Assembly: GCA_963714885.1 (NCBI GenBank)
Contig: CAVQQV010000034.1
Span: 8,702 to 72,701, forward strand
Origin: Candidatus Sulfomarinibacteraceae bacterium
GTDB lineage: Bacteria > Acidobacteriota > Thermoanaerobaculia > Thermoanaerobaculales > Sulfomarinibacteraceae
DNA length: 64,000 bases
Direction of reading: 5' to 3'
A program made the translations under genes and the position numbers. Under the pieces are notes generated by a model. That model worked only from the letters and a program-made list of their open reading frames with translations. It had not been told where the DNA came from and did not search any database. This document shows positions 49,111 to 61,440 of the stretch, piece after piece; positions within the stretch are counted from its first letter, which is position 1; each line of letters begins with the position of its first letter.

Positions 49111-50568
49111 TCAGGCGGACGGCGGCCCGTCCTCGAGCCACCGACGGAGGAATTCGTTGCCGACGGTGTAGTGACCGGACGGGTCTCTTCGAACGAGGCC
49201 GAGATTTTGGAGATTCGCCAGACTCGTACGGGCCTCGGTCGGTGGATCCGGCGGGGCGCCGCCAGCCGATTTCAGCTCGGATGCGGGATTGGTGGCGAGT
49301 TGGATCAGAATGGCGCGCTCGGCCTCGTTGATGAGATTGAAATCGACCGAGAAAAAGAACGACACCGCGCGGTCGTTGTGGACCTCTTCGATCGCATCGT
49401 CAAGAGTGCCGTGATCGAGTGCGTGGCGACACAACATCTGGATCAGGTAGGGGTGGTCTCCGCAGAGGTCTCGGATGCGTTCGATGTGCCGATCGGCGAA
49501 ATCCGGCCGTGAAGCCTCCGGGAGCTGCGTCTGAAGAATCAGAGCGCGGGCGTCGTCGACATCGAGGGGACCAATCGCAAGCGGTGGTGTGAATCCGTCA
49601 AGAAACGGGGAGGTGTCCTCGCCGGCATCGGCAAGCTTCCACAATCGGCTGCTCGAGGCCAATACCGAGCGGATGCCCTCCCGCGACTGCAGCGCCCGAC
49701 GCAGCTTTCTCAGCAGCGAGGGGTCCTGGCGGTTGAGGTTGATCAACTCCTCCACTTCATCGCACAGGAGCAACAGGCGCAGGTTTTTCGCAAGTAGCGC
49801 TCGTCGCATCCTGGCCAGTGAGTCGAAGCAGTCCTCCGACTGAATTTCTGCCAACGGGATGCCCGCCCCCTCGAGGTGCTCTTCAGCGTCGAGCAGTGCA
49901 TCTGCAAAATCGAGGTGGAACTCTTCGGGCCGGTCCGCTCCCTGGAGGTCCCAGAAGACGGGAACAAACCCGAGATCCGGTGAGGTCGCCGCGATCAGTT
50001 CCAGCTGCTTGAGCAGCGAGGTCTTGCCGATCCTGCGGGTTCCGAGCAACCACAACCAGTTTCGATTCCCCACGAGCACTTCGTGGATCGCGGCCTTTCT
50101 TCCATAGAACCTCTCACCGCGAACCCACTGTCCGATCACGTACGGCAGCGGGACCTCGCCGGTGCGATGGGCGGACTCGGACTGTCGTGAGAGGACCGGC
50201 CCTCCACCGCGGTGGTTCTCGTACTCGACGTCGGCGATCAACCGATAGCCCCGCTTCGAAATCGTCTCGATATAGCGAGGGCTCTTGACGTCGTCGCCAA
50301 AGGCGCGCCGCAGCCCGGCAATGGATCGTGTGATCACCGACTCGGTGATAAAGACGTCGGACCACACCGCATCGGTGATTTCGTTTTTGGAGACGACCCG
50401 CCCGGCGTTCGACGCCAGAAACACCAGAACATCCATCAGCTTGGGTTCGAGTTGGATCACCTGAGCCTCTTGCGAAAGCCGGTTGAGGCTCGGTTGGACG
50501 AGCCAGTCGGAAATTCTGAATTCAGCGGCGGCGGGCGGCTCGGAATTTTTATAGCGGTCCATTTCCAC
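49111..50568 (-). CDS. OmpR/CadC-type winged-helix DNA-binding domain fused to a STAND-like P-loop NTPase (module 1, output = DNA binding)
   Basis: N-terminal Trans_reg_C pattern: IQLEPKLMDVLVFLASNAGRVVSKNEITDAVWSDVFITESVITRSIAGLRRAF..IETISKRGYRLIA. Then GQWVRGERFYGRKAAIHEVL, Walker A LLGTRRIGKTSLLKQLE, Walker B LLLLCDEVEEL, and a C-terminal winged-helix-like LQNLGLVRRDPSGHYTVGNEFLRRWLED. The core is paralogous to that of 57012..58928. Confidence 0.8.
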   Translation of the reverse strand: MEMDRYKNSEPPAAAEFRISDWLVQPSLNRLSQEAQVIQLEPKLMDVLVFLASNAGRVVSKNEITDAVWSDVFITESVITRSIAGLRRAFGDDVKSPRYIETISKRGYRLIADVEYENHRGGGPVLSRQSESAHRTGEVPLPYVIGQWVRGERFYGRKAAIHEVLVGNRNWLWLLGTRRIGKTSLLKQLELIAATSPDLGFVPVFWDLQGADRPEEFHLDFADALLDAEEHLEGAGIPLAEIQSEDCFDSLARMRRALLAKNLRLLLLCDEVEELINLNRQDPSLLRKLRRALQSREGIRSVLASSSRLWKLADAGEDTSPFLDGFTPPLAIGPLDVDDARALILQTQLPEASRPDFADRHIERIRDLCGDHPYLIQMLCRHALDHGTLDDAIEEVHNDRAVSFFFSVDFNLINEAERAILIQLATNPASELKSAGGAPPDPPTEARTSLANLQNLGLVRRDPSGHYTVGNEFLRRWLEDGPPSA

Positions 50569-50573
50569 GCATT

Positions 50574-51284
50574 CTATCCCGGACTCGCGTCGGAGAGAGG
50601 GTCGACGCCGACGGGCGCTATCCGAATTTCCTCGAAGAAGTTGTACCAGGGGCTGCCCTCCTCGACCCAGTGTTTGTCGATTTCGACCGCCGTCGCCACC
50701 ATGACCAATGCACCATCGAGACTCATCATGAAGAGACTCCTCACCCTCTGGGTGGTCCGTGGCGTGTAGTGGTTGAGTTCGTCAATCCCGTCGACCAGCA
50801 ACACCAGCCGGGGGCGTCCACCTTCGCGTTTCTTGAGCGCGCGGATGATCCTGCGCAGATCGTGCGCGAGATCGCGGTGGCCGTAGCCGGTGTGAGTACC
50901 CTCGGGACCCGCCAAGTGTTCGGGCCGGAGCTGATCGAAAACGGCCCCACTCACTGTCGAAAACAGCACGTTTTCTGGAATGCTGCGCAGGTTGACGTAG
51001 ACGGGGAAAAAGGTGCTGGTGCCTCTGCCTGCCGACAGACGGTCTTTGAGATCGAGAAGGATAGCTGTTTTTCCGCTCCCGGGCGGTCCACAGAGCAGAA
51101 TGCTGTTGTTGTGGATCGTGCTCAAGATGCGCTGGGTCAAACGCTCGGACCAATGATCGACCCGCGCCGGTCCAGAAGGTGTCATCTCCTCTCGACCGTG
51201 TCCGCCGAAACGGCGCACAAAGCGGGCGATGGCAAACGCGGAAGTGCGAACGATGTTCATTGGTCGGTTCTTTCGTCTGCCCAC
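50574..51284 (-). CDS. Stand-alone P-loop ATPase of the 'SPWYNFFEE' type (module 1 partner)
   Basis: RILSTIHNNSILLCGPPGSGKTAILLDL (Walker A), LVLLVDGIDEL (Walker B), and the C-terminal EGSPWYNFFEEI. It is a paralogue of the cytoplasmic domain of 58912..61311 but lacks the signal, TPR and TM parts and ~65 C-terminal aa. The start is GTG 51284 or ATG 51260. Its stop lies 5 nt before the next start. Confidence 0.7.
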   Translation of the reverse strand: MGRRKNRPMNIVRTSAFAIARFVRRFGGHGREEMTPSGPARVDHWSERLTQRILSTIHNNSILLCGPPGSGKTAILLDLKDRLSAGRGTSTFFPVYVNLRSIPENVLFSTVSGAVFDQLRPEHLAGPEGTHTGYGHRDLAHDLRRIIRALKKREGGRPRLVLLVDGIDELNHYTPRTTQRVRSLFMMSLDGALVMVATAVEIDKHWVEEGSPWYNFFEEIRIAPVGVDPLSDASPG

Positions 51285-51353
51285 AGACAGGACGACTTCA
51301 GGGTCGAATCCTCCTCTCCCTCTCTAAACTAGGCAGAGGGGGATCGAGAGTCT

Positions 51354-51399
51354 TGAGGGTGTGATGAGGCTCCGATGAGGATTTTCCTCGTGCTAGGAT
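51354..51399 (+). promoter_or_regulatory. Three TGAGG direct repeats at 11-bp phasing plus a conserved -10-like block upstream of FadL-like gene 1
   Basis: TGAGG occurs at 51354, 51365 and 51376, exactly 11 nt apart. TAGGAT (51394-51399) starts 18 nt after the last repeat start. ATG follows at 51412. The block TGAGGaTTTtCCtCGTGcTAgGATC is 20/25 identical to the block at 55625-55649. Confidence 0.55.
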
Positions 51400-51411
51400 C
51401 TTTGGGACTCC

Positions 51412-52794
51412 ATGGTGGGCCCGGGCGCTGTTGACACAACCATGCAAGCTCGACTTCGACTCATGCTGCTCGCTTTGGTGGCCATCGCGCCGGCGATGAC
51501 TTCCGCCCAGGAGACCCCTGCCACCTTCGAGTTCAGCTTCTCAAACCCCGGAGCGCGCAGCCTGGGTCTCGGCGGCGCGTTTGCAGCCTTTGCCGACGAC
51601 GCGACCGCCGCCTTTTCCAACCCCGCCGGTCTGGTCCAGCTCGTCCGGCCGGAGGTGTCAGCAGAGCTTCGTCATTGGCGATACACGACGCCATACATCG
51701 AGGGAGGGCGATATGAGGGCGAGCCGACGGGGATCGGTCTCGATACCACCAGCGGTCTTCGAGCTTCGGAATCCGAAGAACAGCTGACAGGGCTGTCCTT
51801 CCTGTCGTTTGTGTATCCAAAAGGGAAGTTCTCCCTCGCGGTCTACCAGCATCAGTCGGCGAAATTCAAGGCCGAGACCGAAACCCAGGGTTTGTTTCAC
51901 ACCGGCGGCACCGGCACCGGGGTCTTTCGAACCCATGACCGTCGGTGGTCGACCGATCTCGATATCGTCAGCTATGGCCTGGCGGGCGCCTACAGGGTCA
52001 GCGATCACCTGAGTGTCGGTCTGGGTCTGGTGTACTTCGAGGGACGGCTGGACGCCCCGTTCGAGTGGACCTTTTTCGACGACTCAACGCTCGATGGCTT
52101 TTATGGACCGAACTCCTACCTGCCGGAGCGACGGCTGGTCACTGGAGACATGGCGATCGATGATTCCGACTGGGGGTTGAATGCGGGTCTTCTGTGGACC
52201 TTCGCCGAACGTTGGAGCCTCGGCGCCTTTTACCGCCAGGGGCCTGAGTTCGGTGTGGTGTACGGTGTTGTTGCCGGACCCATAGCCCCCCTGTTCGAGC
52301 CGGCGCTCACGGAAGGTGCGACAGTGCTGACGATCTCGACACCGATGCAGTTCCCGGACGTGTACGGTCTCGGTCTGGCCTACAGATCGAGCGACGGCAA
52401 GCTCGCGGTTGGCTTCGAGTGGGATCGCGTCGAGTACTCATCGATCTTCGGCAGCTTCGATCCGGTGGTCATCGAAAGTATCGATGACGACCTCGATCTC
52501 GGCATCGAGTTGGTGGCTGAAGACGGCGACGAGTTCCATCTCGGTGCGGAATACGCGTTTCTCGATCTCAAACCCGTGATCGCGGTCCGTGCGGGTGTCT
52601 GGCTCGATCCCGATCACCGTTTCCACAGCATCAGTACCGACCCGGAGCACCAGGCCCTGTTCCAGGCCGGGCAGGACGAGGTTCATCTGGCCCTGGGAAT
52701 CGGGCTCGCCTTTTCGTCGTTTCAGATTGACCTGGCAGCCGACTTTTCGGACCTCGTTGACACCTTCTCGTTGTCGGCGATCTACAGCTTTTGA
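51412..52794 (+). CDS. FadL/TodX-family-like outer-membrane beta-barrel (paralogue 1)
   Basis: Signal peptide LMLLALVAIAPAMTSAQ. N-terminal family motif FSFSNPGARSLGLGGAFAAFADDATAAFSNPAGL. Alternating beta-strand pattern. C-terminal beta-signal SLSAIYSF. Confidence 0.75.
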   Translation: MVGPGAVDTTMQARLRLMLLALVAIAPAMTSAQETPATFEFSFSNPGARSLGLGGAFAAFADDATAAFSNPAGLVQLVRPEVSAELRHWRYTTPYIEGGRYEGEPTGIGLDTTSGLRASESEEQLTGLSFLSFVYPKGKFSLAVYQHQSAKFKAETETQGLFHTGGTGTGVFRTHDRRWSTDLDIVSYGLAGAYRVSDHLSVGLGLVYFEGRLDAPFEWTFFDDSTLDGFYGPNSYLPERRLVTGDMAIDDSDWGLNAGLLWTFAERWSLGAFYRQGPEFGVVYGVVAGPIAPLFEPALTEGATVLTISTPMQFPDVYGLGLAYRSSDGKLAVGFEWDRVEYSSIFGSFDPVVIESIDDDLDLGIELVAEDGDEFHLGAEYAFLDLKPVIAVRAGVWLDPDHRFHSISTDPEHQALFQAGQDEVHLALGIGLAFSSFQIDLAADFSDLVDTFSLSAIYSF

Positions 52795-52799
52795 CCACA

Positions 52800-52931
52800 T
52801 CACATGGCAGCGACGAATATGAGGACCACCAACAAGATCAAAGCGGTGAGGACGGTGACCGGCACGTCGGCCGGTCTCGGTTCGCCGCTGGTACCGTACG
52901 GTGGTGTGTAGCCGCGACGTTGCGGTTCCAT
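52800..52931 (-). CDS. Untracked 43-aa tail-anchored membrane peptide downstream of the beta-lactamase-fold gene
   Basis: My manual translation gives GAGGAGGAAAACC-ATG, with ATG at 52931-52929. The peptide is MEPQRRGYTPPYGTSGEPRPADVPVTVLTALILLVVLIFVAAM, with TGA at 52802-52800. It is too short for the 60-aa track. It lies 42 nt after the upstream stop on the same strand. Confidence 0.5.
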   Translation of the reverse strand: MEPQRRGYTPPYGTSGEPRPADVPVTVLTALILLVVLIFVAAM

Positions 52932-52973
52932 GGTTTTCCTCCTCTTGGCATCGATTGAGATGGTCACTGGGTC

Positions 52974-55541
52974 CTACCGTTTCATGGAGATGGCTGTGCC
53001 GTCGTTGGTGCGGTTGTCGATGACCGACGCGTAGGCGATCAGCCCCTGCCCGGACTGGACGTGGACCGTTGCATAGCCGGCGTCGATGTCGGTACGGCCC
53101 GCGATGCGGGCGAACGGTTCCTGCAGCTGCAGCCACCCACCGGGCCCCAGGGTCCTCGATCGTGACGCCAGCTCGACTCCGGAGCTGTCGAAGAACGTCA
53201 CCCGCATACGCGCCTCGGTCTCGCCGGTGTTGACGAGACCGACATTGGTTCGGAAGAGGTCGTTTTGCAGCAGGTGCGGCAGCCAGACCGTGCCTCCCTC
53301 CCGGCAACTGTCCGCTCCTGAAATGCCGTCGAGAAACAAACCATAGGTGCCGAAGTCGCTCGCGTTGTAGGTTCGAGACGCGACCATGACCGGGCTCGAA
53401 GACTGAATCTCCACCGAACCGGAACCCTCCGCGCCGACCGAGGCCACGACGTCGCCGATCGTCCGTTGCTCGCCATCGTCAAGGGTCACGACAACGTTGC
53501 TGGAGGTCCCATTGTCGCCACGAAAACGAACGTCAACGGTCGCGGTTTCGCCGGAGCGATTGAGGAGACTGAGGTCTGTGCGCCACTGGCTCTCATGGGC
53601 ACCCTCGCCGTGGACGGCGGCCGCGATCCACTGCAGATGATGCCCCTGGCCGGTTTTCATCGGAATCGAGGTGGGGTCCCCGGTCACATTGTCGATGACC
53701 GATGCAGAGGCGTAGACATCCTGCCCCGAGACCACCGTGATCACGGCATAACCGGAGGCGACGTCGTCGCGGTGGCCGAGCTTGAAAAACGGTCGGTTGA
53801 GCTGCACCGTCTGCTGGGGCGCGATCTCCCTGGTATGGCCGGTGATCAGCGAGCCGTCGCCGTCAAACAGAGCGATCTCGACGACCGCCGACCGCCGCCA
53901 CTGATTGTGAATGCCGATGTTGGTGCGAGCTGCGTCGTCCTCCTGCAGCTGCATCAGCACCGCCGATTCGCCGGACTCGAGGCCACCGGTGGCGGTCACA
54001 CCGTCGAGGGACTGGCCGAATGTTCCATCGATGGACTGGTTGTAGGTTCTCGAGGTCACGGTGAGGCCCTCCGATGAGAAGACCTGGAGAGGGCCGGAAC
54101 CGCTCCGGCCAAACCACTCGACCGCGTCCGAAATCACGCGCGATTCTCCGGGCGCCAGCTCGACCTCGCGATCGACCGGTTGATTGCCACGGTGAAGCCT
54201 CAGACGGACGACGTTTGTCCTTGACGACCGGTTGAGCAGACCGACGTCGGAGCGCCAGGTGCTGTCCCCGACGCCGTCGGCATGAGCGACGGCAGGAATC
54301 CACGATTCGGCCGTCGCCGAGCCCACGGGCTCGGTGGAGATGCAGACCGTTTCCCAGAGATCATGGTCGGGCCACGATGTGATTTCGGGGAAGTCGATGG
54401 TCGGAGCGATGGGGTCTTTGTTGGTGAATATGACGAAGACGATGCCGTCCGAGCGCCACACGGCGAGAGTGTGGACGCCGCCGCCTCCCCCTCCGTGGCC
54501 GAAGACCTGGTGTTGATCGTTCGGATTCGTGAGCCAGCCGACGGTGTGGCCGGAATTGGTGAAAAAGTCCTCATTGACCCAGCCGCGTCCGTATCCCACT
54601 TCTTCTCCTGCGGCGAATGGAATAGACAGCATCTGATCGACCGTCCCGTTGTCGAGCAGACCGCTGGCCTCAGGGTCGTCGAAGAGCGCGGAATAGACCC
54701 GCGCCAGGTCGGGGGCGGACATCACCATGAGGCCGGCCGCGAAGGCGTTCTCGGTGATCACCGCGTAGGGATCACCTTCGAGACCGTCGTAGGTCGTCTC
54801 GGTGGGGGCCAGATCGGAGGGGAGAGTGTGGGGGAGGCGGGCACGAGACACGCCGACGGGCCGGAAGATGTTCTCGAAGACAAATTCCGGAAAGTCCTGA
54901 CCGGTGACCTGCTCGACCAGCATGCCGAGCATGATGTAGCCGTAGTTGTTGTAGTCCCACGCCGTCCCGGAATCAAAGAGGAACGGATTGGCAACGATGT
55001 AGGATGCGATTTCCTTCCTCGTGGTTGGCTGCCCGACGCCGTGGGCGGCGGCGACCACACCGTCCACCTCATAGATGTTGTCTTCCGAGTACATGCCGCT
55101 CGTGTGGGTCAACATATGGTCCACGGTCACCGAGTCGAGGCGCGGGTCCACCCGCCAGTCCCACAGTGGATCCACTTCGAGTCCGGACATGACCTCCGTG
55201 TCGTAGGAGAGTGTTCCGTCTTCGATGAGCTGATGGACAGCGATCGAGGTGATCGATTTGCTGATGCTGGCGATGCGAAACAGGGTGGTGGGTTGGATGG
55301 GCTCAACGGAGGGGTCGTCCCAGGTGAATCCCCTTGCGTAGACGAGACGGCCGTCTTTTGCGATCGCCACCGAGCTGCCGCGGATAGAGTGGGTCTGCAT
55401 GATGTCCTGCATCATCAGGTCCACCGCGGACAGTTCGGGGATCGCCTGTCCGGTGACACTCCACTGACGCTGGGCGGCCGCGGCGGCAGCCACCATCAAC
55501 AGGGCTATGAGAACGGTGACGGTCTTTTTCGTGGTTTGCAT
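52974..55541 (-). CDS. Secreted beta-lactamase-fold (class C / family VIII esterase-like) serine hydrolase fused to four copies of an unassigned ~105-aa beta-sandwich-like repeat
   Basis: ATG 55541 follows GAGGGGG. Signal peptide VLIALLMVAAAAAAQ. S-x-x-K motif (FRIASISKSITS), Y-x-N motif (WDYNNYGY) and a third box (VFGHGGGGGG). The C-terminal ~440 aa are repeats (see the repeat feature). Confidence 0.75.
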   Translation of the reverse strand: MQTTKKTVTVLIALLMVAAAAAAQRQWSVTGQAIPELSAVDLMMQDIMQTHSIRGSSVAIAKDGRLVYARGFTWDDPSVEPIQPTTLFRIASISKSITSIAVHQLIEDGTLSYDTEVMSGLEVDPLWDWRVDPRLDSVTVDHMLTHTSGMYSEDNIYEVDGVVAAAHGVGQPTTRKEIASYIVANPFLFDSGTAWDYNNYGYIMLGMLVEQVTGQDFPEFVFENIFRPVGVSRARLPHTLPSDLAPTETTYDGLEGDPYAVITENAFAAGLMVMSAPDLARVYSALFDDPEASGLLDNGTVDQMLSIPFAAGEEVGYGRGWVNEDFFTNSGHTVGWLTNPNDQHQVFGHGGGGGGVHTLAVWRSDGIVFVIFTNKDPIAPTIDFPEITSWPDHDLWETVCISTEPVGSATAESWIPAVAHADGVGDSTWRSDVGLLNRSSRTNVVRLRLHRGNQPVDREVELAPGESRVISDAVEWFGRSGSGPLQVFSSEGLTVTSRTYNQSIDGTFGQSLDGVTATGGLESGESAVLMQLQEDDAARTNIGIHNQWRRSAVVEIALFDGDGSLITGHTREIAPQQTVQLNRPFFKLGHRDDVASGYAVITVVSGQDVYASASVIDNVTGDPTSIPMKTGQGHHLQWIAAAVHGEGAHESQWRTDLSLLNRSGETATVDVRFRGDNGTSSNVVVTLDDGEQRTIGDVVASVGAEGSGSVEIQSSSPVMVASRTYNASDFGTYGLFLDGISGADSCREGGTVWLPHLLQNDLFRTNVGLVNTGETEARMRVTFFDSSGVELASRSRTLGPGGWLQLQEPFARIAGRTDIDAGYATVHVQSGQGLIAYASVIDNRTNDGTAISMKR
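52977..54302 (-). repeat. Intragenic tandem duplication: 2 x ~216 aa, each made of two related ~105-aa units
   Basis: Unit 1 (54302-53655) and unit 2 (53630-52977) align as follows. WIPAVAHADGVGDSTWRSDVGLLNRS..VTSRTYNQS.DGTFGQSLDGV...DDAARTNIGIHNQ...ASGYAVITVVSGQDVYASASVIDNVTGDPTSIPMK versus WIAAAVHGEGAHESQWRTDLSLLNRS..VASRTYNASDFGTYGLFLDGI...NDLFRTNVGLVNT...DAGYATVHVQSGQGLIAYASVIDNRTNDGTAISMK. Confidence 0.65.
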
Positions 55542-55591
55542 GGCGAACCCCCTCGTCTCCATCAATGTGGGGTTTCGACAGCGCCAGCGCT

Positions 55592-55648
55592 TGAGGGAAT
55601 ACTGAGGTCGCCGTGAGGGTCTTTTGAGGCTTTCCCCCGTGTTACGAT
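55592..55648 (+). promoter_or_regulatory. Four TGAGG direct repeats at 11-bp phasing plus a conserved -10-like block upstream of FadL-like gene 2
   Basis: TGAGG occurs at 55592, 55603, 55614 and 55625, exactly 11 nt apart. TACGAT (55643-55648) starts 18 nt after the last repeat start. ATG follows at 55656, only 7 nt after the hexamer. The same intergenic region serves the divergent beta-lactamase-fold gene. Confidence 0.55.
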
Positions 55649-55655
55649 CCACACC

Positions 55656-57005
55656 ATGAACCGCGTGGATCGTAATCTGTTCCGTGGTTCTGTGACGCGG
55701 TGTTTCGTGCTCATGGTCGCTGCCGCTGCGGCACAGCTGATGCCGAGATATTCGGTGGCGCAGGAAGCGCCCCCCGCGCTCGAGTTCAGCTTTTCCAATC
55801 CCGGCGCCCGGAGCATGGGTTTGGGCGGCGCATTCGTCGCTTTGGCCGATGACGCAACCGCCGCCTTTGCCAACCCGGCCGGTCTCGTTCAGTTGCTGCG
55901 GCCCGAGGTGTCACTCGAGTTGAGGAGGCGGAATTACTCGACCCCATACACTGAGGGGGGACGAGCCTCGGGTTCGCCAACCGGATTCGGTATCGATACC
56001 GTCGATGGTGTTCGAACCGCAACCTCGAACGAGACGACGTCTGGAGTGTCCTTTCTCTCATTCGTCTATCCGGGCACGAAGTGGTCGCTGGCCCTGTATC
56101 GACATCAGCTCGCTGATTTTTCGGTGAGTACGGAAATCAACGGTCTCTTCGGCGACGCCATTGAGGGCGGAACCAGGCGCTACGAAGACCAGCCGATAAC
56201 CACCGATCTCGAAATCGTCGGAACTGGCCTCTCGGGCGCCTACCAGGTGAGTGAACGTCTCAGCGTCGGGTTCGGGCTGACGTACTTCGCGGGCAGCGTC
56301 GAGAATCATGGGGCGGCCTACTCTGTCGACAGCTTCCCGGAGACCTATTGGGACGAGAATTCGTTTCTACCCCACAGACAGATTGTGACCAGCAGCTTCG
56401 TAGTTGATGAAACGGACATCGGGTTCAACGTCGGCTTCCTGTGGCAGTTCGCCGAGAGCTGGCGCCTCGGGGGCGTGTATCGGCAGGGACCGCGATTCGA
56501 CTACGAGCTCTACAATCGCGCCGGACCCCTCAACGATGAGCCAGAGGGGACCGTCCTCGAGGCCGTGACCGACCGCTCCATCGCCTTTCCGGATGTGTGG
56601 GGATTGGGCGTCGCCTACCGATCGCCGAATGGGAGTCTGACCGTCGGTTTCGAGTGGGATCTGGTCGAGTACTCGGTGATTCTGGAGACGCTTGATTCCG
56701 AGCAGGTCGACACGACGGATGTTGCAATGGACGACGCGAACGAGCTGCACCTCGGGTTCGAGTACGTGTTTCTGAAAACGAAACCTCTGATCGCGGTTCG
56801 CGCCGGGCTGTGGCGCGATCCGGACCACCGGTTTCGATATGAAGGCGACGATCCGTTCGCAAGTGCTCTGTATCAGCCCGGAAAGGACTCGTTGCACGTC
56901 ACCGTCGGCGTTGGGGTTGCATTCAAGAGTTTTCAAATCGACCTCGGGGCCGACCTCTCGGATCGTGCCGACGTCTTGTCGCTGTCAGCGATCTACAGTT
57001 TCTGA
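55656..57005 (+). CDS. FadL/TodX-family-like outer-membrane beta-barrel (paralogue 2)
   Basis: Signal peptide. FSFSNPGARSMGLGGAFVALADDATAAFANPAGL, and the C-terminal VLSLSAIYSF. It is collinear with 51412..52794 throughout. Confidence 0.75.
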   Translation: MNRVDRNLFRGSVTRCFVLMVAAAAAQLMPRYSVAQEAPPALEFSFSNPGARSMGLGGAFVALADDATAAFANPAGLVQLLRPEVSLELRRRNYSTPYTEGGRASGSPTGFGIDTVDGVRTATSNETTSGVSFLSFVYPGTKWSLALYRHQLADFSVSTEINGLFGDAIEGGTRRYEDQPITTDLEIVGTGLSGAYQVSERLSVGFGLTYFAGSVENHGAAYSVDSFPETYWDENSFLPHRQIVTSSFVVDETDIGFNVGFLWQFAESWRLGGVYRQGPRFDYELYNRAGPLNDEPEGTVLEAVTDRSIAFPDVWGLGVAYRSPNGSLTVGFEWDLVEYSVILETLDSEQVDTTDVAMDDANELHLGFEYVFLKTKPLIAVRAGLWRDPDHRFRYEGDDPFASALYQPGKDSLHVTVGVGVAFKSFQIDLGADLSDRADVLSLSAIYSF

Positions 57006-57011
57006 TCCTGT

Positions 57012-58928
57012 CTATCGGAGCCCGGCCGCTATGCGCCGGAGGGCCTCCTCAACCTGCACCGCACTCGAAATCCGTTCCGCCGGGTCCTTGGCGAGGCAGC
57101 GCAAGGTGAGGGCTGCGAGCTCCCCCGGAATTCCAGGCGCGATCGTCGACGGGTCGGGGGGGAGGGCGGTGCGCTGCATGGCAAGAACCTCAGCCACAGT
57201 GTTGGCCTCGAACGGCCGCCGGCCGGTTGCCATCTCGAAGATCACGAGCCCCAGCGCATAGAGATCGGATCTTTCGTCGAGCGGGCCCAGGGCGACCTGT
57301 TCGGGCGACGCGTAATGTGGCGTGCCGACAAACACGCCGTGCTGGGTGAGGCCCTGCTCACCGATCAAACGGGCAAGGCCGAAATCGGCGAGGTACGGTT
57401 CGCCATCCTCATCCATCAGGATGTTGCCGGGTTTGACGTCGCGGTGAAGGACGTTTCGTTCGTGTGCGGATGCCAGTGCCGATGCGAGCTTCGAAGAAAT
57501 ACTGAGAACCACCGGCACCGGAAGCGCCCCACACTCCGAGATTCTGTCGGCGAGCGTCCCTCCGTTGATCCACTGCATGGTGATGTATGTTCCGCCCTCA
57601 TACGAGGCCAGGTGATAGGCACGGAGGATGTTGGGGTGGGCGAGATCACGTGACAGAAGGATCTCCTGTCGCACCCGATCGAGCGCTGAGGGGTTGGCCG
57701 TGTACTCCGGTTTGAGCAGCTTGAGAGCAACCCAGGTGTCGAGCATGGTGTCGCGGGCCTTGAAAACGCTGCCGGTCGCTCCCGTGCCGACTTCCTCGTG
57801 CAGTGTGTACCGGCTGTCGATGGTCCTCAGAGATATCGTGAGGTCCCCGCTTATCGAGGCAGACTGTGGCGGAGGTGCCTGTGGCGCGGTGTCCAGATCT
57901 TCGAGCCAGCGCCGCATGAAAAAACTCGGCAGCACATAGCTCCGGTCCTCATCGCGACCGATGAAACCGAGGTTTTCGAGCCGCTGCAGGGCGTCGTCCC
58001 GGTCGGCGGTGTCGGCCTTCATCACGGCGTGAAGTGATGCATCGGTAGCCCTCTCTTGCTCGGCAATCAACCGGAGGACCGTCTTCTCGGTGGCAGACAG
58101 CATCTCGAAATCGACCGAAAAGAAGTAGTTGATCATGCGATCGGTGGCGACCTGGCGACAGGCTTCGTCGAAATCGCCGGTCTCCAGGAAGCGTTTGCAG
58201 ACCAGCTGGACCAGGTAGGGGTGGTTGCCGCAGCGGAGACAGATTTCGATCGCGTCTTTCTCGCCGATCTCCGGCCGAGATTCCGGTGTGGTGTGGTCCT
58301 GTCGAACGAGGGCGAGGCTTTCGTCGGTGGAGAGGCCGTTGATGTAGAGCGGTGGGCTGAAGCCATGGAGGAATGGCGATGTGTCGCCCCTCTGTTCCGA
58401 GAGTTCGCACAGCCGGACCGACGAGGTGAGCACCGAACGAACACCCTCCTGGGACTGCATGGCGCGCCGAAGTTTGCGCAACAGCGCGGGATCCTGGCGG
58501 TGGAGATTGAGGAGTTCCTCGACCTCGTCGCAGAGGAGGAGGAGCGAGCGCCCCTGGCTCGTGAGCAGGCGGCGGAGTCTGGCCATCGAACTGAAGAGGT
58601 CCCCGCTTTCGAAATCGGAGATTTGAATGCCAATATCGCCGAACCTTTCTTCGGCGTCGAGCAGGGCGTCCGAAAAGCTGAGATGGAGTTCTTCCGGGTC
58701 GTCGGCTCCCTGAAAATCCCAGAAGATCGGGACGTACTCTCGCCCGTCGGACGTGGCCAGAAACTCGAGTTGTTTGAGCAGGGACGTCTTGCCGATCCTT
58801 CGAGTGCCCAGGATCCAGAGCGAGTTTCGAGGACCGTCGAGGATTTCCTCGATCAGACCGCTCCGCCCATAGAAACGATCACCGCGGACCCACTGGCCGA
58901 CCACGAAGGGGTTAGGTCCTGGCTTCAT
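57012..58928 (-). CDS. STAND-like P-loop NTPase fused to a C-terminal Hanks-type Ser/Thr protein kinase (module 2, output = kinase)
   Basis: ATG 58928. The core is GQWVRGDRFYGRSGLIEEIL, ILGTRRIGKTSLLKQLE, LLLLCDEVEEL and LENLGFIGRDEDRSYVLPSFFMRRWLED. The kinase has VGTGATGSVFKA (G-loop), WVALKLL, HRDVKPGNIL, LADFGLAR and GTPHYASPEQ. The first 50 aa of the track ORF are over-extension. Confidence 0.85.
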   Translation of the reverse strand: MKPGPNPFVVGQWVRGDRFYGRSGLIEEILDGPRNSLWILGTRRIGKTSLLKQLEFLATSDGREYVPIFWDFQGADDPEELHLSFSDALLDAEERFGDIGIQISDFESGDLFSSMARLRRLLTSQGRSLLLLCDEVEELLNLHRQDPALLRKLRRAMQSQEGVRSVLTSSVRLCELSEQRGDTSPFLHGFSPPLYINGLSTDESLALVRQDHTTPESRPEIGEKDAIEICLRCGNHPYLVQLVCKRFLETGDFDEACRQVATDRMINYFFSVDFEMLSATEKTVLRLIAEQERATDASLHAVMKADTADRDDALQRLENLGFIGRDEDRSYVLPSFFMRRWLEDLDTAPQAPPPQSASISGDLTISLRTIDSRYTLHEEVGTGATGSVFKARDTMLDTWVALKLLKPEYTANPSALDRVRQEILLSRDLAHPNILRAYHLASYEGGTYITMQWINGGTLADRISECGALPVPVVLSISSKLASALASAHERNVLHRDVKPGNILMDEDGEPYLADFGLARLIGEQGLTQHGVFVGTPHYASPEQVALGPLDERSDLYALGLVIFEMATGRRPFEANTVAEVLAMQRTALPPDPSTIAPGIPGELAALTLRCLAKDPAERISSAVQVEEALRRIAAGLR

Positions 58929-61311
58929 CGATTCCCGCGACCGCATCGACGTCGGCGGTCGTGATCTGCCGTCGTCCCTCCTCGTACATCCGGTTGACGA
59001 GAGCGATGCAGAGCCTTTGAACCCGGTACGGTTTGCGGTCGGTGAGCTCGATGATGCTGTCGACCACGGCACCGTCAAACTTGAAAACCCCGCCGGTCGG
59101 TCGTGTGATCAAGTCGATCGCGTGGTCCCGCTCGATCGGCGTGACCTCGATCTCCTCGAAGAAGTTGTACCAGGGGCTGCCTTCTTTGTCCCACTGCTTG
59201 CGGATCTCGACTCCCGAGACCACCGCGACGAGGTTTTCGGCAAAACTCTTCATGAAAAGGCTTCTCAGACGTTGGTTGACACGGGGGTCGTAGGCATTGA
59301 GTTCGTCGACCTCGTCGATGAGAAGCACCAGCTTGACCTGCTTTTCGCTTCTGGCCTTGAGGGCCTTGATCACCTTCCGGAGATCGTGCACCAGTTCGCG
59401 GTAGCCATAGACCGATCCCTGGGGAACATCAGCACCGACCGTCGCACCGTCGAGCAGTGGGGCCAGCTCGTGAAAGATGTCTTCAGCCAGGGTGGAGAAA
59501 AACTGCGACTCGGGGGTTCCCTGGAGATCGATATAGACCGGGTAGAACGCGTACTGCGGGTCGTCGAGCTCGAGCAGCCGCCGCCTGATGTGGTGTTGCA
59601 GCGAGGTCTTGCCGATTCGGCGTTCGCCGTACAACAGAAGACTGTTGTTGTGGATGGTCTGCAGGATCCTCTCGACAAGTTGTTCCCTTCCAAAGAACAT
59701 TTCACGATCGAGCACCGGCGCGCCGGCGATGTAGGGGTTGAATCGCCGCGTGATGAGCTGGCGCCGGCGTCTGGCCCGGAACGCCCAGACTCCGGCGAGA
59801 ACGGCGATCGGCAGCGCGGCTATCACGAGTTGGAACCAGAGTGATCTGTAGAACGGCACCGCGTAAAGGACGGTGTACTCTGCGCTCGAACTCAGACCGG
59901 CGCTGTCGGTGGCGGTGAGGGAGTAGACCGACCATCCTGAGCGGAGACGCTCGGTGAGCGTGAACTCGGTGACGAAGTACTCGCCCACAGCCTGGCTGGT
60001 GCTGTGTCCTTCGATCTGCCGGCCTTCAGGGCCCTGGAATCGGATGTCGACTGGAGAGTTGTCGATCACCACGCCATTCAGGCGAAAGTCCGGTGTCCTC
60101 ACAACCTGGATCTTCATCCCGTCGGGCTGGTCGCTTCTGAAATCGGCGAAGCGAATCGCGGGGGGGATATTTTCGACAGTTCGCGATCCAAGCAGCCGGC
60201 TGCTGATCTCGCCGTAGGCTCTGCGGACCTGTCCGAGAGCCGCGACGTTTCCCGGGTCGATCGCGAGCACGCGGTTGGACGCCGAAATGGCGGCCTCGAA
60301 CTCGCCGGCCGCGTACAAACTGACGGCTTCCTGGAGCGTGCTGTTCAGGGACTCCTGAACGACAATCCTCTTTTGAGCCTCGAGGATTCGGCGCTGAATC
60401 TCGGCTGCCGCTGCGTTTGTCGGATCGGCTGCGAGAACTCTCTGGAGTTGGTCGAGGGCCGCGGAGAACCGCCCTGACTGTTCGAGGTCTCGAGCCTGGC
60501 TCAACCCTGTCGTGACCGCGGCCTGCCGTGCGCCCGCATCTTCCTCGGCCCGGATCTCTGCCGCGAGGCCGGCCCGCGCCTGATCGAGAAGTTGTTGGGC
60601 CGTTGTGTCTGGTTGCAGCGAAAGGGCCTGTTGGAACAGGCTCGATGCCTCCGCGAAGTTGCCGTCGTCGAGGTCAGCTCTGCCGCGGCTGATCAGATCC
60701 GCCGCCCGGGCGCCGTCGAGTCGTTGGCGCTCCCGCCGAACGACCTCGGTCCGCAGTTCCTGCATCTTGGCGGTTGCGTCGGGGTTTTCCTGGTCCACGG
60801 CGAGACCCTCACCGAGAGCATCCATGGCTGCCTCGAGCCGGCCCTGACGCTCGAGAATCTCGGCCTCCCGGAGGCTTTCACGGACGATCTGCGATGTGCG
60901 CTCGCTCTCCATGTTGGCGACGTCCTCGCGTGCGTTGAGGGCCAACTGTCGGAATCGTTGCAGCTCCTCCATGTCCGTTTTCGAGGCTTGAATCGCGCCC
61001 AGTTGCTCCTCGGTCTGAAATGCCTGCAGCGCGGCTTCGTACTGCCCGAGATGGTGGTAGGCGATGCCGAGCTTGAGGTAGGGAAAGTACGCGACAACCT
61101 TCATCCCGTACGAACGGACTCGTGCTCCCGAGTCGCCCTTACGCTCGAGGGCCTGTTGGAGCTCCTCGACGGCGTCGCCCCATTTCCCATCGGCAAGGGC
61201 GGCTTCGGCCCGTGCATAGTGCTCGTACCAGTAGTCGGCCCAGGCGGTCGGGGCGGGCGCCCATAACGTGCACACGATCACCGCGTATGCAACCAGCACG
61301 CGACCTTTCAT
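58912..61311 (-). CDS. Membrane sensor-like protein: signal peptide, TPR-rich ectodomain, Ig-like segment, one TM helix, cytoplasmic 'SPWYNFFEE'-type P-loop ATPase (module 2 partner)
   Basis: ATG 61311 (MKGRVLVAYAVIVCTLWAPAPTAWA). TPR-like repeats (YFPYLKLGIAYHHLGQYEAALQAF, ..AEASSLFQQALSLQPD.., AISASNRVLAIDPGN). TM helix LWFQLVIAALPIAVLAGVWAF followed by RARRRRQ. ATPase: RILQTIHNNSLLLYGERRIGKTSL, LVLLIDEVDEL and EGSPWYNFFEEI. It overlaps the kinase gene start by 17 nt. Confidence 0.8.
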   Translation of the reverse strand: MKGRVLVAYAVIVCTLWAPAPTAWADYWYEHYARAEAALADGKWGDAVEELQQALERKGDSGARVRSYGMKVVAYFPYLKLGIAYHHLGQYEAALQAFQTEEQLGAIQASKTDMEELQRFRQLALNAREDVANMESERTSQIVRESLREAEILERQGRLEAAMDALGEGLAVDQENPDATAKMQELRTEVVRRERQRLDGARAADLISRGRADLDDGNFAEASSLFQQALSLQPDTTAQQLLDQARAGLAAEIRAEEDAGARQAAVTTGLSQARDLEQSGRFSAALDQLQRVLAADPTNAAAAEIQRRILEAQKRIVVQESLNSTLQEAVSLYAAGEFEAAISASNRVLAIDPGNVAALGQVRRAYGEISSRLLGSRTVENIPPAIRFADFRSDQPDGMKIQVVRTPDFRLNGVVIDNSPVDIRFQGPEGRQIEGHSTSQAVGEYFVTEFTLTERLRSGWSVYSLTATDSAGLSSSAEYTVLYAVPFYRSLWFQLVIAALPIAVLAGVWAFRARRRRQLITRRFNPYIAGAPVLDREMFFGREQLVERILQTIHNNSLLLYGERRIGKTSLQHHIRRRLLELDDPQYAFYPVYIDLQGTPESQFFSTLAEDIFHELAPLLDGATVGADVPQGSVYGYRELVHDLRKVIKALKARSEKQVKLVLLIDEVDELNAYDPRVNQRLRSLFMKSFAENLVAVVSGVEIRKQWDKEGSPWYNFFEEIEVTPIERDHAIDLITRPTGGVFKFDGAVVDSIIELTDRKPYRVQRLCIALVNRMYEEGRRQITTADVDAVAGIDEART

Positions 61312-61440
61312 GTCGGAGCAACGCACCGGATGACGGTCACCGGCCTTCCGAGCCTGAGGCGCAACGGCGTCATGTGTGTGCATACGCTATCCCGCGTCGA
61401 GTGTAACAGGCGACACGAAGGCGATGGATCGTCGCGCGGC

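Follow-up and report, generated by a model that had tools for sequence, protein, structure and literature searches.

MalT and GutR, two transcription factors of the STAND class, and PknK, in which a STAND part is fused to a kinase, are single polypeptides that carry their own cytoplasmic sensor repeats. The locus analysed here lies in a 64-kb window (the whole stretch of DNA, 64,000 nucleotides) and resembles these proteins in the fusion of a nucleotide-dependent switch with an output domain, either DNA-binding or kinase, and has a fold like that of MalT (8bob); however, it splits sensor and output over two paralogous NTPases, A and B, and the sensor is extracytoplasmic. In Streptomyces, the large SARP AfsR of the AfsK/AfsR system consists of an OmpR-type DNA-binding domain, a BTAD, a NOD/STAND ATPase and TPRs. 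Our locus likewise has an OmpR-type winged helix (wHTH) N-terminal to a STAND-like NTPase, a Hanks kinase in the cluster, and 11-bp direct repeats abutting a putative -10 element, in place of a -35 (PMC10936776; window repeats). On the other hand, we detected no BTAD, A lacks C-terminal TPRs, and its NTPase is of the ATPase_2/nSTAND1 rather than the NB-ARC type. Moreover, unlike AfsK, the kinase shares its polypeptide with a paralogous NTPase, and the module, which occurs in other host lineages, adds a membrane-spanning TPR-NTPase partner and an obligatory FadL linkage.

The FecA-FecR-FecI system is similar in tying an outer-membrane channel gene to a single-pass inner-membrane sensor and a transcription output; some relatives of our locus use an ECF sigma factor in the channel operon (locus L002), and operator-like repeats suggest that regulation extends to the channel gene. 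Here, though, a FadL-type channel without an N-terminal signalling domain takes the place of the TonB-dependent one, a TPR-NTPase serves as sensor instead of an anti-sigma factor, and the sigma, wHTH and kinase outputs are fused to NTPases. CadC and ToxR are the closest matches of the A1 wHTH, and most wHTH-A relatives are membrane-anchored as well, but A has no periplasmic sensor, the NTPase sits between wHTH and anchor, and A1 is unanchored. Finally, nSTAND conflict systems and the Avs/NLR-like antiviral STAND proteins belong to the same NTPase family neighbourhood, nSTAND1/ATPase_2, and distant relatives of the A NTPase carry EAD, CHAT, SIR2 and HEPN domains, whereas the module clade itself is strongly conserved, is without death effectors and combines a periplasmic sensor with a FadL setting.

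The first-pass annotation knew of no named system of this composition, and our searches bear this out. PADLOC matched the generic kinase domain and nothing else, NCBIfam gave only sub-threshold partial matches, and full-text literature searches returned no description of the module; FadL is not mentioned in the STAND surveys checked, and the treatment of nSTAND conflict systems by Kaur et al. 2020 (PMC7159879) mentions neither FadL nor OmpR nor sigma factors. The window holds two copies of a conserved bacterial gene module that has apparently gone undescribed so far. We lean towards reading this module, built on two paralogous STAND-like NTPases, as a trans-envelope signalling route by which channels for hydrophobic substrates are controlled.

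Genes of the window

An ORF check and Pfam searches found all seven genes where the first-pass annotation had placed them, with the domains that it named and with two paralogous ATPase pairs (Table 1); its 5-nt gap between B1 and A1 and its 17-nt overlap of B2 and A2 follow from the ORF coordinates.

Table 1. Features of the locus, with positions in the window
Feature	Position	Strand	Description
A1	49111..50568	-	OmpR/CadC-type wHTH fused N-terminally to A-type NTPase core
B1	50574..51284	-	Short soluble B-type paralogue; AAA_16/AAA_22/NACHT-like P-loop (Pfam)
F1 module	51354..51399	+	Putative operator/promoter, common to divergent B1-A1
F1	51412..52794	+	FadL-family channel, Toluene_X (Pfam)
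43-aa peptide	52800..52931	-	Tail-anchored membrane peptide downstream of H; GEPRPxDVPxTVLTALILL...
H	52974..55652 (ORF); 52974..55541 from probable start	-	Secreted serine hydrolase
F2 module	55592..55648	+	Putative operator/promoter, common to divergent H
F2	55656..57005	+	FadL-family outer-membrane channel, Toluene_X 63.6 bits (Pfam)
A2	57012..58928	-	Soluble A-type NTPase core fused to Hanks Ser/Thr kinase (ORF calls, Pfam)
B2	58912..61383	-	Putative envelope sensor NTPase: TPRs + nSTAND1/ATPase_2 (Pfam)

B2 matches nSTAND1 and ATPase_2 (33.9 bits each, both passing the Pfam cut-off) as well as TPR families, and probably starts at the ATG at 61311. By hydrophobicity, aa 29-47 form a signal-like segment and aa 513-538 a single TM helix, with RARRRRQ behind it, which puts the TPRs on the periplasmic side of the membrane and the ATPase on the cytoplasmic side, in agreement with the earlier description of a signal peptide, TPR ectodomain, one TM helix and ATPase. 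The ectodomain comprises ~460 aa of TPRs and an Ig-like beta domain (a weak Big_13 match at aa ~400-510), and the cytoplasmic P-loop part has a Walker A (GERRIGKTS), a Walker B (LVLLIDEVDEL) and a GSPWYNFFEEI motif, all three near-invariant in B across about 60 loci. B1 is 48% identical to B2 across 196 aa (E 9e-54) and keeps GSPWYNFFEEI; it has no TPR and no TM helix, its Walker A is degenerate (GPPGSGKTA), and its Walker B (LVLLVDGIDEL) is without the catalytic Glu. We rejected the idea that B1 is merely B2 cut short: there is a conserved short subtype, marked by a degenerate Walker A and a Walker B lacking the glutamate, of which B1 is a member, and B1 is probably a pseudo-NTPase partner of A1. 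Thus the duplication of two cassettes proposed in the first-pass annotation holds as paralogy (A1/A2, B1/B2, F1/F2) and fails as equivalence, B1 being soluble and catalytically degenerate.

A1 and A2 are 50% identical across 357 aa (E 1e-117), and A and B are in turn related to each other as distant paralogues (29% identity, E 1e-17). The A2 core contains GQWVRGDRFYGR, Walker A GTRRIGKTS, Walker B LLLLCDEVEEL and a C-terminal winged helix, and is joined to a complete Hanks kinase (Pkinase, E 2.6e-47, Pfam; GTGATGSV, VALK, HRDVKPGN, DFG and SPE motifs), just as had been proposed: the same core as A1 with a kinase. The AF2 model of this core (pLDDT 80) finds its best PDB folds in 2qen and 2fna, then in ORC/Cdc6, plant NLR NB-ARC, MalT and Apaf-1/Dark. 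The NTPase part of A1 gives Pfam matches to ATPase_2, nSTAND1 and AAA_22, all sub-threshold, while its wHTH (Trans_reg_C, aa 36-110, E 1.9e-17, Pfam) is closest in a PDB profile search to CadC (5ju7, E 5.7e-15) and then ToxR, and partially matches CadC in NCBIfam (NF007540, E 1.7e-29). We found no TM anchor on A1, which is the sole DNA-binding protein of the locus.

F1, whose true start may be M11 at 51442, is 53% identical to F2 (E 2e-154). F2 has a signal peptide, an NPA hatch motif and SAIYSF at its C-terminus, and its AF2 model is a barrel that best matches E. coli FadL, a P. aeruginosa FadL homologue, CymD and TodX; neither sequence nor model revealed an N-terminal signalling extension on F. 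H agrees with its earlier description as a secreted beta-lactamase-fold hydrolase (Beta-lactamase PF00144, E 1.8e-53; beta-lactamase/PBP fold with SISK, YNN and HGG motifs) and probably starts at M38 (55541), with a GAGGGGG ribosome-binding site upstream. Its C-terminal part is a tandem 2-fold repeat of an unassigned beta-rich unit of ~218 aa (40% identity, E 3e-49); the 4-fold repeat once claimed is unsupported, because the halves of a single unit do not align with each other. The 43-aa peptide is real: tblastn finds it at the equivalent position, with 51-69% identity, in seven related loci (L005-L008, L010, L074, L078). Locus L007 has the peptide yet no H. Among the surveyed loci both H and the peptide are found solely in Sulfomarinibacteraceae, and are therefore clade-specific accessories.

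Conservation of the module across genomes

Our survey covered 41 A-type NTPase genes with full flanks in about 75 genomes, all MAGs, from Acidobacteriota classes, Woeseiaceae/Gammaproteobacteria and a few other taxa. Conditional on the presence of A, 40 of the 41 genes have a B-type ATPase core within 6 kb, all 41 have a B TPR region within 7 kb, and 35 have a FadL-like gene within 6 kb (none was found at that distance from the other 6), so that the proposed synteny of both ATPase types with FadL genes is strongly upheld. In loci collected by way of the A family, B (TPR+ATPase) stands directly upstream on the same strand for 30 of the 34 kinase-type A genes with full flanks; among the 64 same-strand B-A pairs listed, most have a B that ends right at the beginning of A or just inside it, and the same B-A-F triad occurs on independent large contigs. 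Between Acidobacteriota and Gammaproteobacteria the A core keeps 50-60% identity, and its outputs are swapped among an N-terminal Trans_reg_C, a C-terminal Sigma70_ECF (aa 365-552 of relative P0116, E 7.5e-55) and a C-terminal Pkinase. At L002, F lies in one operon with B and a sigma-fused A. Most wHTH-A relatives bear C-terminal TM helices, which therefore place those forms at the membrane alongside B.

The B input is invariably of the same TPR type in the surveyed loci, an invariance that would also suit a dedicated role in structure or transport. One could imagine an energised uptake machine, in which the B ectodomain docks on the FadL channel and the B ATPase together with A drives cargo extraction or hand-over, the periplasm being crossed as by TonB-ExbBD or Mla/Lpt and the A outputs merely reporting load. 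Such a machine would suit an ectodomain that is always TPR+Ig, strictly conserved catalytic motifs, F genes that adjoin nearly always and are often multiplied, and OmpW-family channels that recur in 14 loci. But B has only one TM helix, no permease or periplasmic lipid carrier is conserved near the module, A bears classic signalling outputs swapped between lineages, and a STAND-like fold is typical of switches rather than motors, and so we consider this explanation quite improbable.

The first-pass annotation also thought a defence role possible, a claim that now looks weak for this clade. A function against phages or in conflict, after the manner of nSTAND/Avs and with the kinase acting as the effector, would be in keeping with B2 scoring above the nSTAND1 threshold, with the kinase domain matching PD-T4-6/MAD6 kinase models in PADLOC, and with distant A NTPase relatives (20-35% identity) being fused to CHAT, SIR2_2, HEPN_Swt1, EAD2/EAD7 and AbiEii-like AAA_21. 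Yet the PADLOC matches are confined to the generic kinase domain, with no NTPase or system-level match, the outputs include wHTH and ECF sigma, STAND clades often switch between defence and non-defence (PMC13581612), and one distant relative with a defence-like fusion has neither B nor F close by. Because the sensor is periplasmic, the components are unusually conserved across phyla (in contrast to diversifying immune sensors), the neighbouring genes are metabolic (GH3, GH88, AKR, MttB) and no homologues were found in plasmid and phage collections, we regard defence as unlikely, and this particular form of it as scarcely credible.

A direct repeat before the channel genes

Upstream of both channel genes lies a TGAGG direct repeat of exact 11-bp spacing, in 3-4 copies, 13 nt from a -10-like hexamer, with identical geometry at F1 and F2. 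The F1 copies are at 51354, 51365 and 51376, followed by TAGGAT (51394-51399); those of F2 are at 55592, 55603, 55614 and 55625, followed by TACGAT (55643-55648), which ends 7 nt before the F2 ATG. On the minus strand the F2 module reads as CCTCA x4, 51-88 nt upstream of the H ATG. Within the 64-kb window CCTCA-N6-CCTCA-N6-CCTCA occurs solely at 51354-51380 and 55592-55629, with 3 matches at up to 2 mismatches against 0.26 expected. Every Sulfomarinibacteraceae relative keeps the repeat at both F positions, three repeats are invariant across 11 aligned sites, and in 1.37 Mb of loci the triple repeat is confined to this family and, with one exception, to the front of F1/F2. The -10 assignments derive from conservation alone, since a promoter scan did no better than shuffles. 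The arrangement is similar to that of SARP sites, where by rule the 11-bp repeats end 8 bp from the -10 (PMC10936776), and A1 is the candidate binder of these TGAGG/CCTCA repeats.

Gammaproteobacterial loci have TGAT x3, also at 11-bp spacing, just upstream of the wHTH-A gene (6 matches, and 0 in the remaining 1.15 Mb of loci); there the A gene and not F has the repeat. Outside Sulfomarinibacteraceae, the search for an operator in front of F found none in any clade, and thus the sequence record of A controlling F is that of one family.

The repeat common to the fronts of F1, F2 and H favours the earlier proposal that the output controls the FadL-type channels and the hydrolase, though not its placing of H and the peptide in the core. 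A scan of the window found no such operator upstream of B2-A2, which suggests a hierarchy, B2/A2 upstream and B1/A1 downstream, in place of the two parallel units first envisaged. The same observations could suit a sensor of envelope or outer-membrane stress, an explanation that departs from ours solely in the nature of the input: B would watch outer-membrane lipid or OMP state, and F1, F2 and H, marked as outputs by the operator, would be targets only. The missing signalling extension of F and the 6 of 41 loci without an adjacent F are in line with this; the linkage of F to B-A across phyla, including the L002 operon, is nevertheless tighter than expected for a mere target, and we hold such a sensor to be unlikely, if worth keeping in mind.

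A possible route from envelope to gene

How could trans-envelope signalling by this module work? In our best reading B2 senses, A2 phosphorylates, and B1 and A1 act as pseudo-ATPase and transcription factor, respectively. B2, in the inner membrane, would read a periplasmic cue through its TPR and Ig-like ectodomain, the presumed ligand probably being connected with the neighbouring FadL-type channel or with the hydrophobic cargo that this channel carries. Its cytoplasmic NTPase would pair with the soluble paralogue A2, as paralogy, adjacency and start/stop overlap suggest, and, with the signal presumably passing from B to A, the nucleotide state of A2 would switch the fused kinase. The transcriptional arm would be the second pair, in which A1, helped by the degenerate B1, may bind the repeats that take the -35 place at the F1 and F2 promoters, either activating or repressing them. 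These repeats would co-regulate the divergent H-peptide and B1-A1 units too, so that the regulon would be equipment for the uptake of hydrophobic substrates, made up of two FadL channels, a hydrolase resembling esterases and, in relatives, an OmpW-like channel. The kinase arm would probably signal on to the transcriptional one, on the model of AfsK and AfsR. Such a relay would most likely be a new kind of envelope-to-gene signalling.

The locus and its products

Our analysis of the window confirms that the seven genes lie where the first-pass annotation had placed them: the layout is borne out by the ORF list and the translations, and the domain content by Pfam. Both ATPase pairs and the FadL pair are paralogous by alignment. 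The A-type NTPases, A1 with a fused winged helix (wHTH) and A2 with a fused Hanks kinase, are 50% identical (E 1e-117), the B-type NTPases B1 and B2 48% (E 9e-54), and the FadL-like channels F1 and F2 53% (E 2e-154); A and B are distant paralogues of one another (29% identity, E 1e-17). The G+C content of the window is about 62%, the neighbours in it are metabolic genes (GH3, GH88, aldo-keto reductase, YdjC, YgjP-like, MttB), and Rfam and tRNA scans of the window gave no match. Directly downstream of A1, the first part of an ORF at 47488-48876 (-) matches the YdjC family (Pfam, positions 2-151 of 266), and about 260 unmatched residues follow; the ORF looks like a frameshift or an assembly error.

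Coordinates of the genes in the window and of the repeats in gammaproteobacterial loci
Feature	Coordinates	Strand	Evidence or content
A1	49111-50568	-	ORF and translation; Pfam Trans_reg_C and sub-threshold ATPase_2/nSTAND1 P-loop
B1	50574-51284	-	ORF and translation; Pfam P-loop, AAA_16/AAA_22/NACHT-like
F1	51412-52794	+	ORF and translation; Pfam Toluene_X
43-aa ORF	52800-52931	-	C-terminal TM helix, MEPQRRGYTPPYGTSGEPRPADVPVTVLTALILLVVLIFVAAM
H (hydrolase)	52974-55652	-	ORF and translation; Pfam Beta-lactamase PF00144
F2	55656-57005	+	ORF and translation; Pfam Toluene_X
A2	57012-58928	-	ORF and translation; Pfam NTPase as in A1, and Pkinase
B2	58912-61383	-	ORF and translation; Pfam TPRs and nSTAND1/ATPase_2
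(T)TGAT triple repeat	L054 9464-9490; L062 4213-4239; L064 ~9501; L065 9531-9557; L067 6333-6359; L057 3049-3075		

The Walker A (GTRRIGKTS) and Walker B (LLLLCDEVEE) motifs of A are invariant in 18-30 homologues, and in full-length B proteins Walker A (GERRIGKTS), Walker B (hhLLIDEVDEL, in B2 LVLLIDEVDEL) and a GSPWYNFFEEI motif are almost invariant over some 60 loci. B2 passes the Pfam gathering thresholds for nSTAND1 (33.9 vs 27.1) and ATPase_2 (33.9 vs 33.2), and the nSTAND1 threshold is also exceeded by the B1-type protein of locus L074 (38.6) and the A-type homologue P0011 (30.5); the nSTAND1/ATPase_2 scores of A1 (23.6/24.4), A2 (20.1/27.2) and B1 (17.9/16.6) lie below threshold. With an AlphaFold (AF2) model of the A2 core (pLDDT 80), Foldseek places the archaeal ATPase_2 structures 2qen (E 9e-12) and 2fna closest, followed by ORC/Cdc6, the NB-ARC domains of plant NLRs (NRC2/3/4, RPP1), MalT and Apaf-1/Dark. 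On this predicted model the A core is a STAND-like switch, sharing the NBD-helical-winged-helix fold of the STAND class. In sequence searches of the PDB the NTPases had no close relative of solved structure; the matches were limited to CadC/ToxR for the wHTH and a weak one of 2qen to B2 (E 0.045).

STAND/NLR-type NTPases are known as switches made of one cytoplasmic protein, which acts as a regulator (MalT, AfsR) or as an immune sensor, and they carry C-terminal cytoplasmic sensor repeats on the NTPase chain. Here, however, A has no sensor repeats, and the TPRs of B are N-terminal and periplasmic, with a TM helix between them and the NTPase. With a signal-like segment and one TM helix (aa 513-538) that RARRRRQ follows, B2 should have its TPR and Ig-like region (~460 aa) in the periplasm and its NTPase in the cytoplasm. 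The N-terminus of B is always TPR (+Ig); we considered variable input domains on B and rejected them, the short B matches being split gene calls with TPR genes ahead.

The claim of two paralogous pairs holds as far as paralogy goes, but B1 is not a plain copy of B. It belongs to a distinct degenerate subtype, short and limited to Sulfomarinibacteraceae and one bin, in which Walker A is variable or broken (e.g. GKCA, GKKS) and Walker B is without its glutamate (DG, DH, EG, DD), in departure from the Walker A and hhhhD[DE] Walker B that A and B otherwise share with the STAND class, while GSPWYNFFEEI is kept perfectly. We read B1 as a putative pseudo-NTPase adaptor for A1. GSPWYNFFEEI and, in A, DTSPFLHGFxPP (residues ~174-190) are the top conserved non-Walker motif of each paralogue; this motif, kept even in degenerate B1, falls in the one loop that the AF2 model gives with low confidence (pLDDT <50) and is a candidate interaction surface.

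The two A proteins differ in their outputs. A1 has an N-terminal OmpR-type winged-helix DNA-binding domain (Trans_reg_C, aa 36-110, 63.5 bits), in common with SARP/AfsR regulators; those have a BTAD after the wHTH, whereas A1 gives no BTAD match (Pfam, E<=0.01). The C-terminus of A2 scores 161.9 bits with Pkinase and, with its G-loop, VAxK, HRD, DFG and A/SPE motifs all legible in the translation, is a predicted Hanks-type Ser/Thr kinase.

With Toluene_X scores of 55.4 (F1) and 63.6 bits (F2) against a cut-off of 29.7, and with E. coli FadL (E 4e-16), a P. aeruginosa FadL homologue, CymD and TodX as top Foldseek matches of the F model, the channels are members of the FadL/TodX family and predicted transporters; NPAGL is present in both, the hatch itself being of low confidence in the model. 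We rejected F as a PorV/T9SS shuttle for H, as PorV models match only the ~40-70-aa FadL-type N-terminal hatch motif, far below threshold; the "TPR" of a Treponema FadL paper was likewise dropped as a lead, since it denotes T. pallidum repeat proteins. OmpW-like genes turn up in 14 loci spread over several Acidobacteriota clades, and in relatives a small outer-membrane protein of the OmpW family is encoded between F1 and B1, downstream of the predicted operator described below (L005 18465-19133 (+); L074 3664-4338 (+)). Only 127 bp separate 51284 and 51412 in the window, which implies that the gene has been lost there.

H, with 182.3 bits for PF00144 and intact SxxK, YxN and HxG motifs (SISK, YNN and HGG in the translation), is a predicted beta-lactamase/transpeptidase-like serine hydrolase of the esterase/PBP-type fold; it reaches no NCBIfam equivalog threshold. 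The four-fold repeat first ascribed to it reduces to a two-fold tandem repeat of a ~218-aa beta-rich unit in the C-terminal part (residues ~450-892; window 52974-54302 (-)), with the recurring motifs W.x.AxHxxGxxxSxWRTDLxLLN and YASVIDNxTxD and no match of the unit in Pfam (best E 0.094). The 43-aa ORF is found at the same position, with 51-69% identity, in seven Sulfomarinibacteraceae loci, including L007, which is without the hydrolase; the ORF probably encodes a genuine small membrane protein belonging to the regulon.

Synteny and output swapping among relatives

A pattern scan that took one genome for each species and an A-type protein alignment as query yielded 75 loci, all from MAGs; all carriers of the module are uncultured. 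The closest (66-77% identity) are from Candidatus Sulfomarinibacter and the Sulfomarinibacteraceae (Acidobacteriota, Thermoanaerobaculia), a marine-sediment lineage. Others come from Thermoanaerobaculia, Holophagales, Vicinamibacteria and Polarisedimenticolia, from Woeseiaceae and other Gammaproteobacteria, and from single bins assigned to Calditrichaceae, Hyphomicrobium, Bacteroidetes and Deltaproteobacteria, where some assignments may be binning errors.

We mapped the window proteins on all loci by tblastn, in a survey that starts from loci that have A, and counted synteny for those 41 A genes that have flanks of at least 6 kb upstream and 7 kb downstream. The association of B, A and FadL-like genes that the first-pass proposal presupposed is thereby confirmed for A-containing loci: the B core lies within 6 kb of A in 40/41, the B TPR region within 7 kb in 41/41, and a FadL-like gene within 6 kb in 35/41. 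In nearly all loci with enough flank B (TPR plus ATPase) is directly upstream of A on the same strand (for kinase-type A, immediately upstream in 30/34), and in most of the 64 same-strand pairs listed the stop codon of B touches or overlaps the start of A, an arrangement indicative of one operon, probably with translational coupling. The triad is also found on large contigs that we looked up independently, among them a 682-kb contig where B, a sigma-fused A and a FadL-like gene follow one another with 4-nt overlaps. The Gammaproteobacteria depart from the common orientation: B is divergent, 2-4 kb upstream of a wHTH-A, with a DUF5666/DUF2807 gene between and FadL-like genes after A.

The full order of the window (B2 with kinase-type A2, F2, H, peptide, F1, B1-A1) is kept in four loci (L005, L006, L008, L010) and piecewise in four more (L004, L009, L074, L078). 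All of these are Sulfomarinibacteraceae, and L007 of this family has no H; we therefore regard H and the 43-aa peptide as clade-specific accessories. The 120 F2 homologues listed are all close orthologues. Many other Acidobacteriota have a single B together with two A genes, one of kinase type and one of wHTH or sigma type; B adjoins either of them and the other is an orphan (L011, L026, L047; L002/L015, L027, L029; MAG pairs L020/L066 and L013/L071), and such gene sets fit a cascade. A STAS-domain gene (L002 15160-15495 (+), with equivalents in L015, L024, L027 and L029) adjoins the orphan kinase-type A in genomes where the partner of B is a sigma-fused A, and its position hints at a partner-switching element.

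Clustered at 90%, homologues of the A core number more than 1,000, and the best 120 listed are 55-92% identical over the full 345 aa; at 50% clustering 340 representatives have E < 1e-30. Members of the close clade differ in output domain: most have an OmpR/CadC-type wHTH at the N-terminus, others an ECF sigma factor (e.g. P0116, Sigma70_ECF aa 365-552, E 7.5e-55) or a Hanks kinase at the C-terminus. Most wHTH-A proteins are ~580 aa long and end in two or three TM helices, absent from A1 of the window, with a conserved tail of the form …VGIAYVVxAWLLLQVGEIVLDFLEVPxWAGKLLLVFLALGLPIALxLAWAFELTPEG… (P0011, P0097, P0054, P0109, P0036, P0023, P0029, P0008); with these hydrophobic helices, most are membrane-anchored transcription factors. 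That the NTPases drive an uptake machine with ATP is a less likely alternative: the signalling outputs of A speak against it, and we found no conserved permease or carrier partner.

Distant NTPase relatives (20-35% identity) are fused to CHAT, SIR2_2, HEPN_Swt1, EAD2/EAD7 and AbiEii-type AAA_21 domains, and also (representatives P0363-P0508) to FHA and SpoIIE, which suggests that the signalling clade is nested in a family otherwise of conflict type; one relative with a defence-like fusion has neither B nor F nearby. While these fusions speak for the defence role that had been left open at first, such a role now appears unlikely for the A/B clade itself: its sensor is periplasmic, all its parts are strongly conserved across phyla, its neighbours are metabolic genes, plasmid and phage collections yielded no A core homologues, and PADLOC-DB v2 recognises nothing beyond the generic kinase domain in A2 (PD-T4-6, mad6), the NTPase matches having E>=1e-4 over 20-70 residues and F and H none. 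A recent survey reports that STAND clades often switch between defence and non-defence (PMC13581612), and the signalling clade looks like one such switch.

Repeats upstream of the channel genes

Alignment of the F2|H intergenic regions of relatives reveals four copies of CCTCA with exact 11-bp spacing. With up to two mismatches allowed, CCTCA-N6-CCTCA-N6-CCTCA occurs in the 64-kb window only at 55592-55629 (H|F2) and 51354-51380 (B1|F1); all the matches are perfect, and 0.26 were expected. In the 1.37 Mb of fetched loci (up to one mismatch) it is confined to Sulfomarinibacteraceae and stands, with one exception, directly before F2 or F1. Eleven aligned sites from six genomes have three invariant repeats and an adjacent GATCGTAGCACG element.

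On the F-coding strand, three to four TGAGG repeats are followed after 13 nt by TACGAT (F2) or TAGGAT (F1), in identical geometry for both genes, which leaves 7 nt between the end of the last 11-bp unit and a -10-like hexamer. SARP activators use 11-bp repeats of which the 3' one lies 8 bp from the -10, in place of a -35 (PMC10936776), and the sequence pattern of the predicted F1/F2 control elements is essentially of this form. A consensus promoter and terminator scan did no better than on shuffled sequence, and our promoter assignments accordingly follow from conservation. Within window 55643-55658 (+) the conserved -10-like TACGAT ends 7 nt before the F2 ATG; were it a true -10, F2 would be transcribed into a leaderless or nearly leaderless mRNA. 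In F1 orthologues the element is ~45-50 nt away from the start codon.

Read on the opposite strand, the repeats lie ~50-90 nt upstream of B1 and of the start of H, M38, which a GAGGGGG ribosome-binding site precedes; none is found upstream of B2-A2. In L078, where F2 is missing, the -10-like element has degenerated and the repeats remain before H, a pattern of decay in keeping with a bidirectional control region. No DNA-binding protein other than A1 is encoded in the locus, and OmpR-family domains typically bind tandem repeats of this kind.

In gammaproteobacterial loci, TGAT is repeated three times at 11-bp spacing only just upstream of wHTH-A, in the divergent region between it and the DUF5666/DUF2807 gene (6 exact matches, against 0 in the other 1.15 Mb). 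This second, independent case of such repeats suggests that these loci are autoregulated through a half-site of another sequence. Under strict criteria no periodic repeats were found upstream of F outside Sulfomarinibacteraceae.

A proposed relay across the envelope

The best-supported reading of the locus is a trans-envelope signalling module, with a mechanism that we infer from its sequence. In this model B2 would be a constitutive inner-membrane sensor and A2 its paired effector, whose nucleotide switch would control the Hanks kinase. A1 and B1 would form a transcriptional arm acting on the TGAGG operator and controlling F1, F2, H, the peptide and its own operon, and the kinase would probably modulate this arm, by analogy with AfsK and AfsR. 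In Gammaproteobacteria, B and a membrane-anchored wHTH-A would suffice. The regulated genes point to uptake of hydrophobic compounds, given the FadL fold of F, the recurrent OmpW-family gene and the esterase/PBP-type H. A pure envelope-stress sensor with F only as its target differs from this module mainly in its input, and the present data do not tell the two apart.

The logic resembles that of AfsK/AfsR, of MalT-type regulators and of Fec-type surface signalling. In the last, a TonB-dependent transducer that bears a signalling domain at its N-terminus works with a FecR-type anti-sigma factor and an ECF sigma factor, whereas F is of the Toluene_X/FadL fold without an N-terminal extension, B is an NTPase, and ECF sigma occurs only as a fusion in relatives. 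The module thus departs from each of these systems, having no BTAD, no same-chain cytoplasmic sensor repeats and no TonB-dependent transducer or anti-sigma factor. The first reading had known of no named system of such composition, and PADLOC, NCBIfam and Pfam indeed offer no system-level name; literature searches (nSTAND1, Sulfomarinibacter, FadL+STAND+TPR+ECF, PF01637+PF03349, Toluene_X+sigma, TIGR02999, among others), of incomplete coverage, returned no description of the combination.

Individually the parts belong to known kinds: a STAND-like switch, an OmpR-type wHTH, a Hanks kinase, a FadL channel and a serine hydrolase. What appears to be new is their combination, namely a split paralogous NTPase sensor/effector pair, a periplasmic TPR sensor with a single membrane pass, outputs that can be swapped, a pseudo-NTPase variant and a near-obligatory linkage to FadL-type channels. 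A bolder reading, which we offer tentatively and consider rather doubtful, is a new class of transmembrane signalling with paralogous STAND-like NTPases as transmitter and receiver, B1 as adaptor and a kinase-to-transcription-factor cascade. A single-pass TPR sensor NTPase would then take the place of the histidine kinase, and an effector NTPase with interchangeable wHTH, ECF-sigma or Hanks-kinase output that of the response regulator, while a FadL-type channel at the outer membrane would provide the input, as a hydrophobic-substrate counterpart of TonB-dependent cell-surface signalling.

More generally, a strongly conserved STAND clade appears to be divided between a sensor in the membrane and a soluble effector whose outputs can be exchanged, and its genes are locked to those of FadL-type, and often also OmpW-type, channels. 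The predicted operator (TGAGG, 11-bp spacing) makes the model testable in vitro, with no need to culture the host. If the relay is real, it would represent a new architecture for bacterial trans-envelope signalling and a natural sensor/helper-like pairing of STAND paralogues outside immunity, pseudo-NTPase included, and the uptake of hydrophobic compounds by the abundant, uncultured Acidobacteriota and Woeseiaceae of marine sediments would gain its first regulatory handle.
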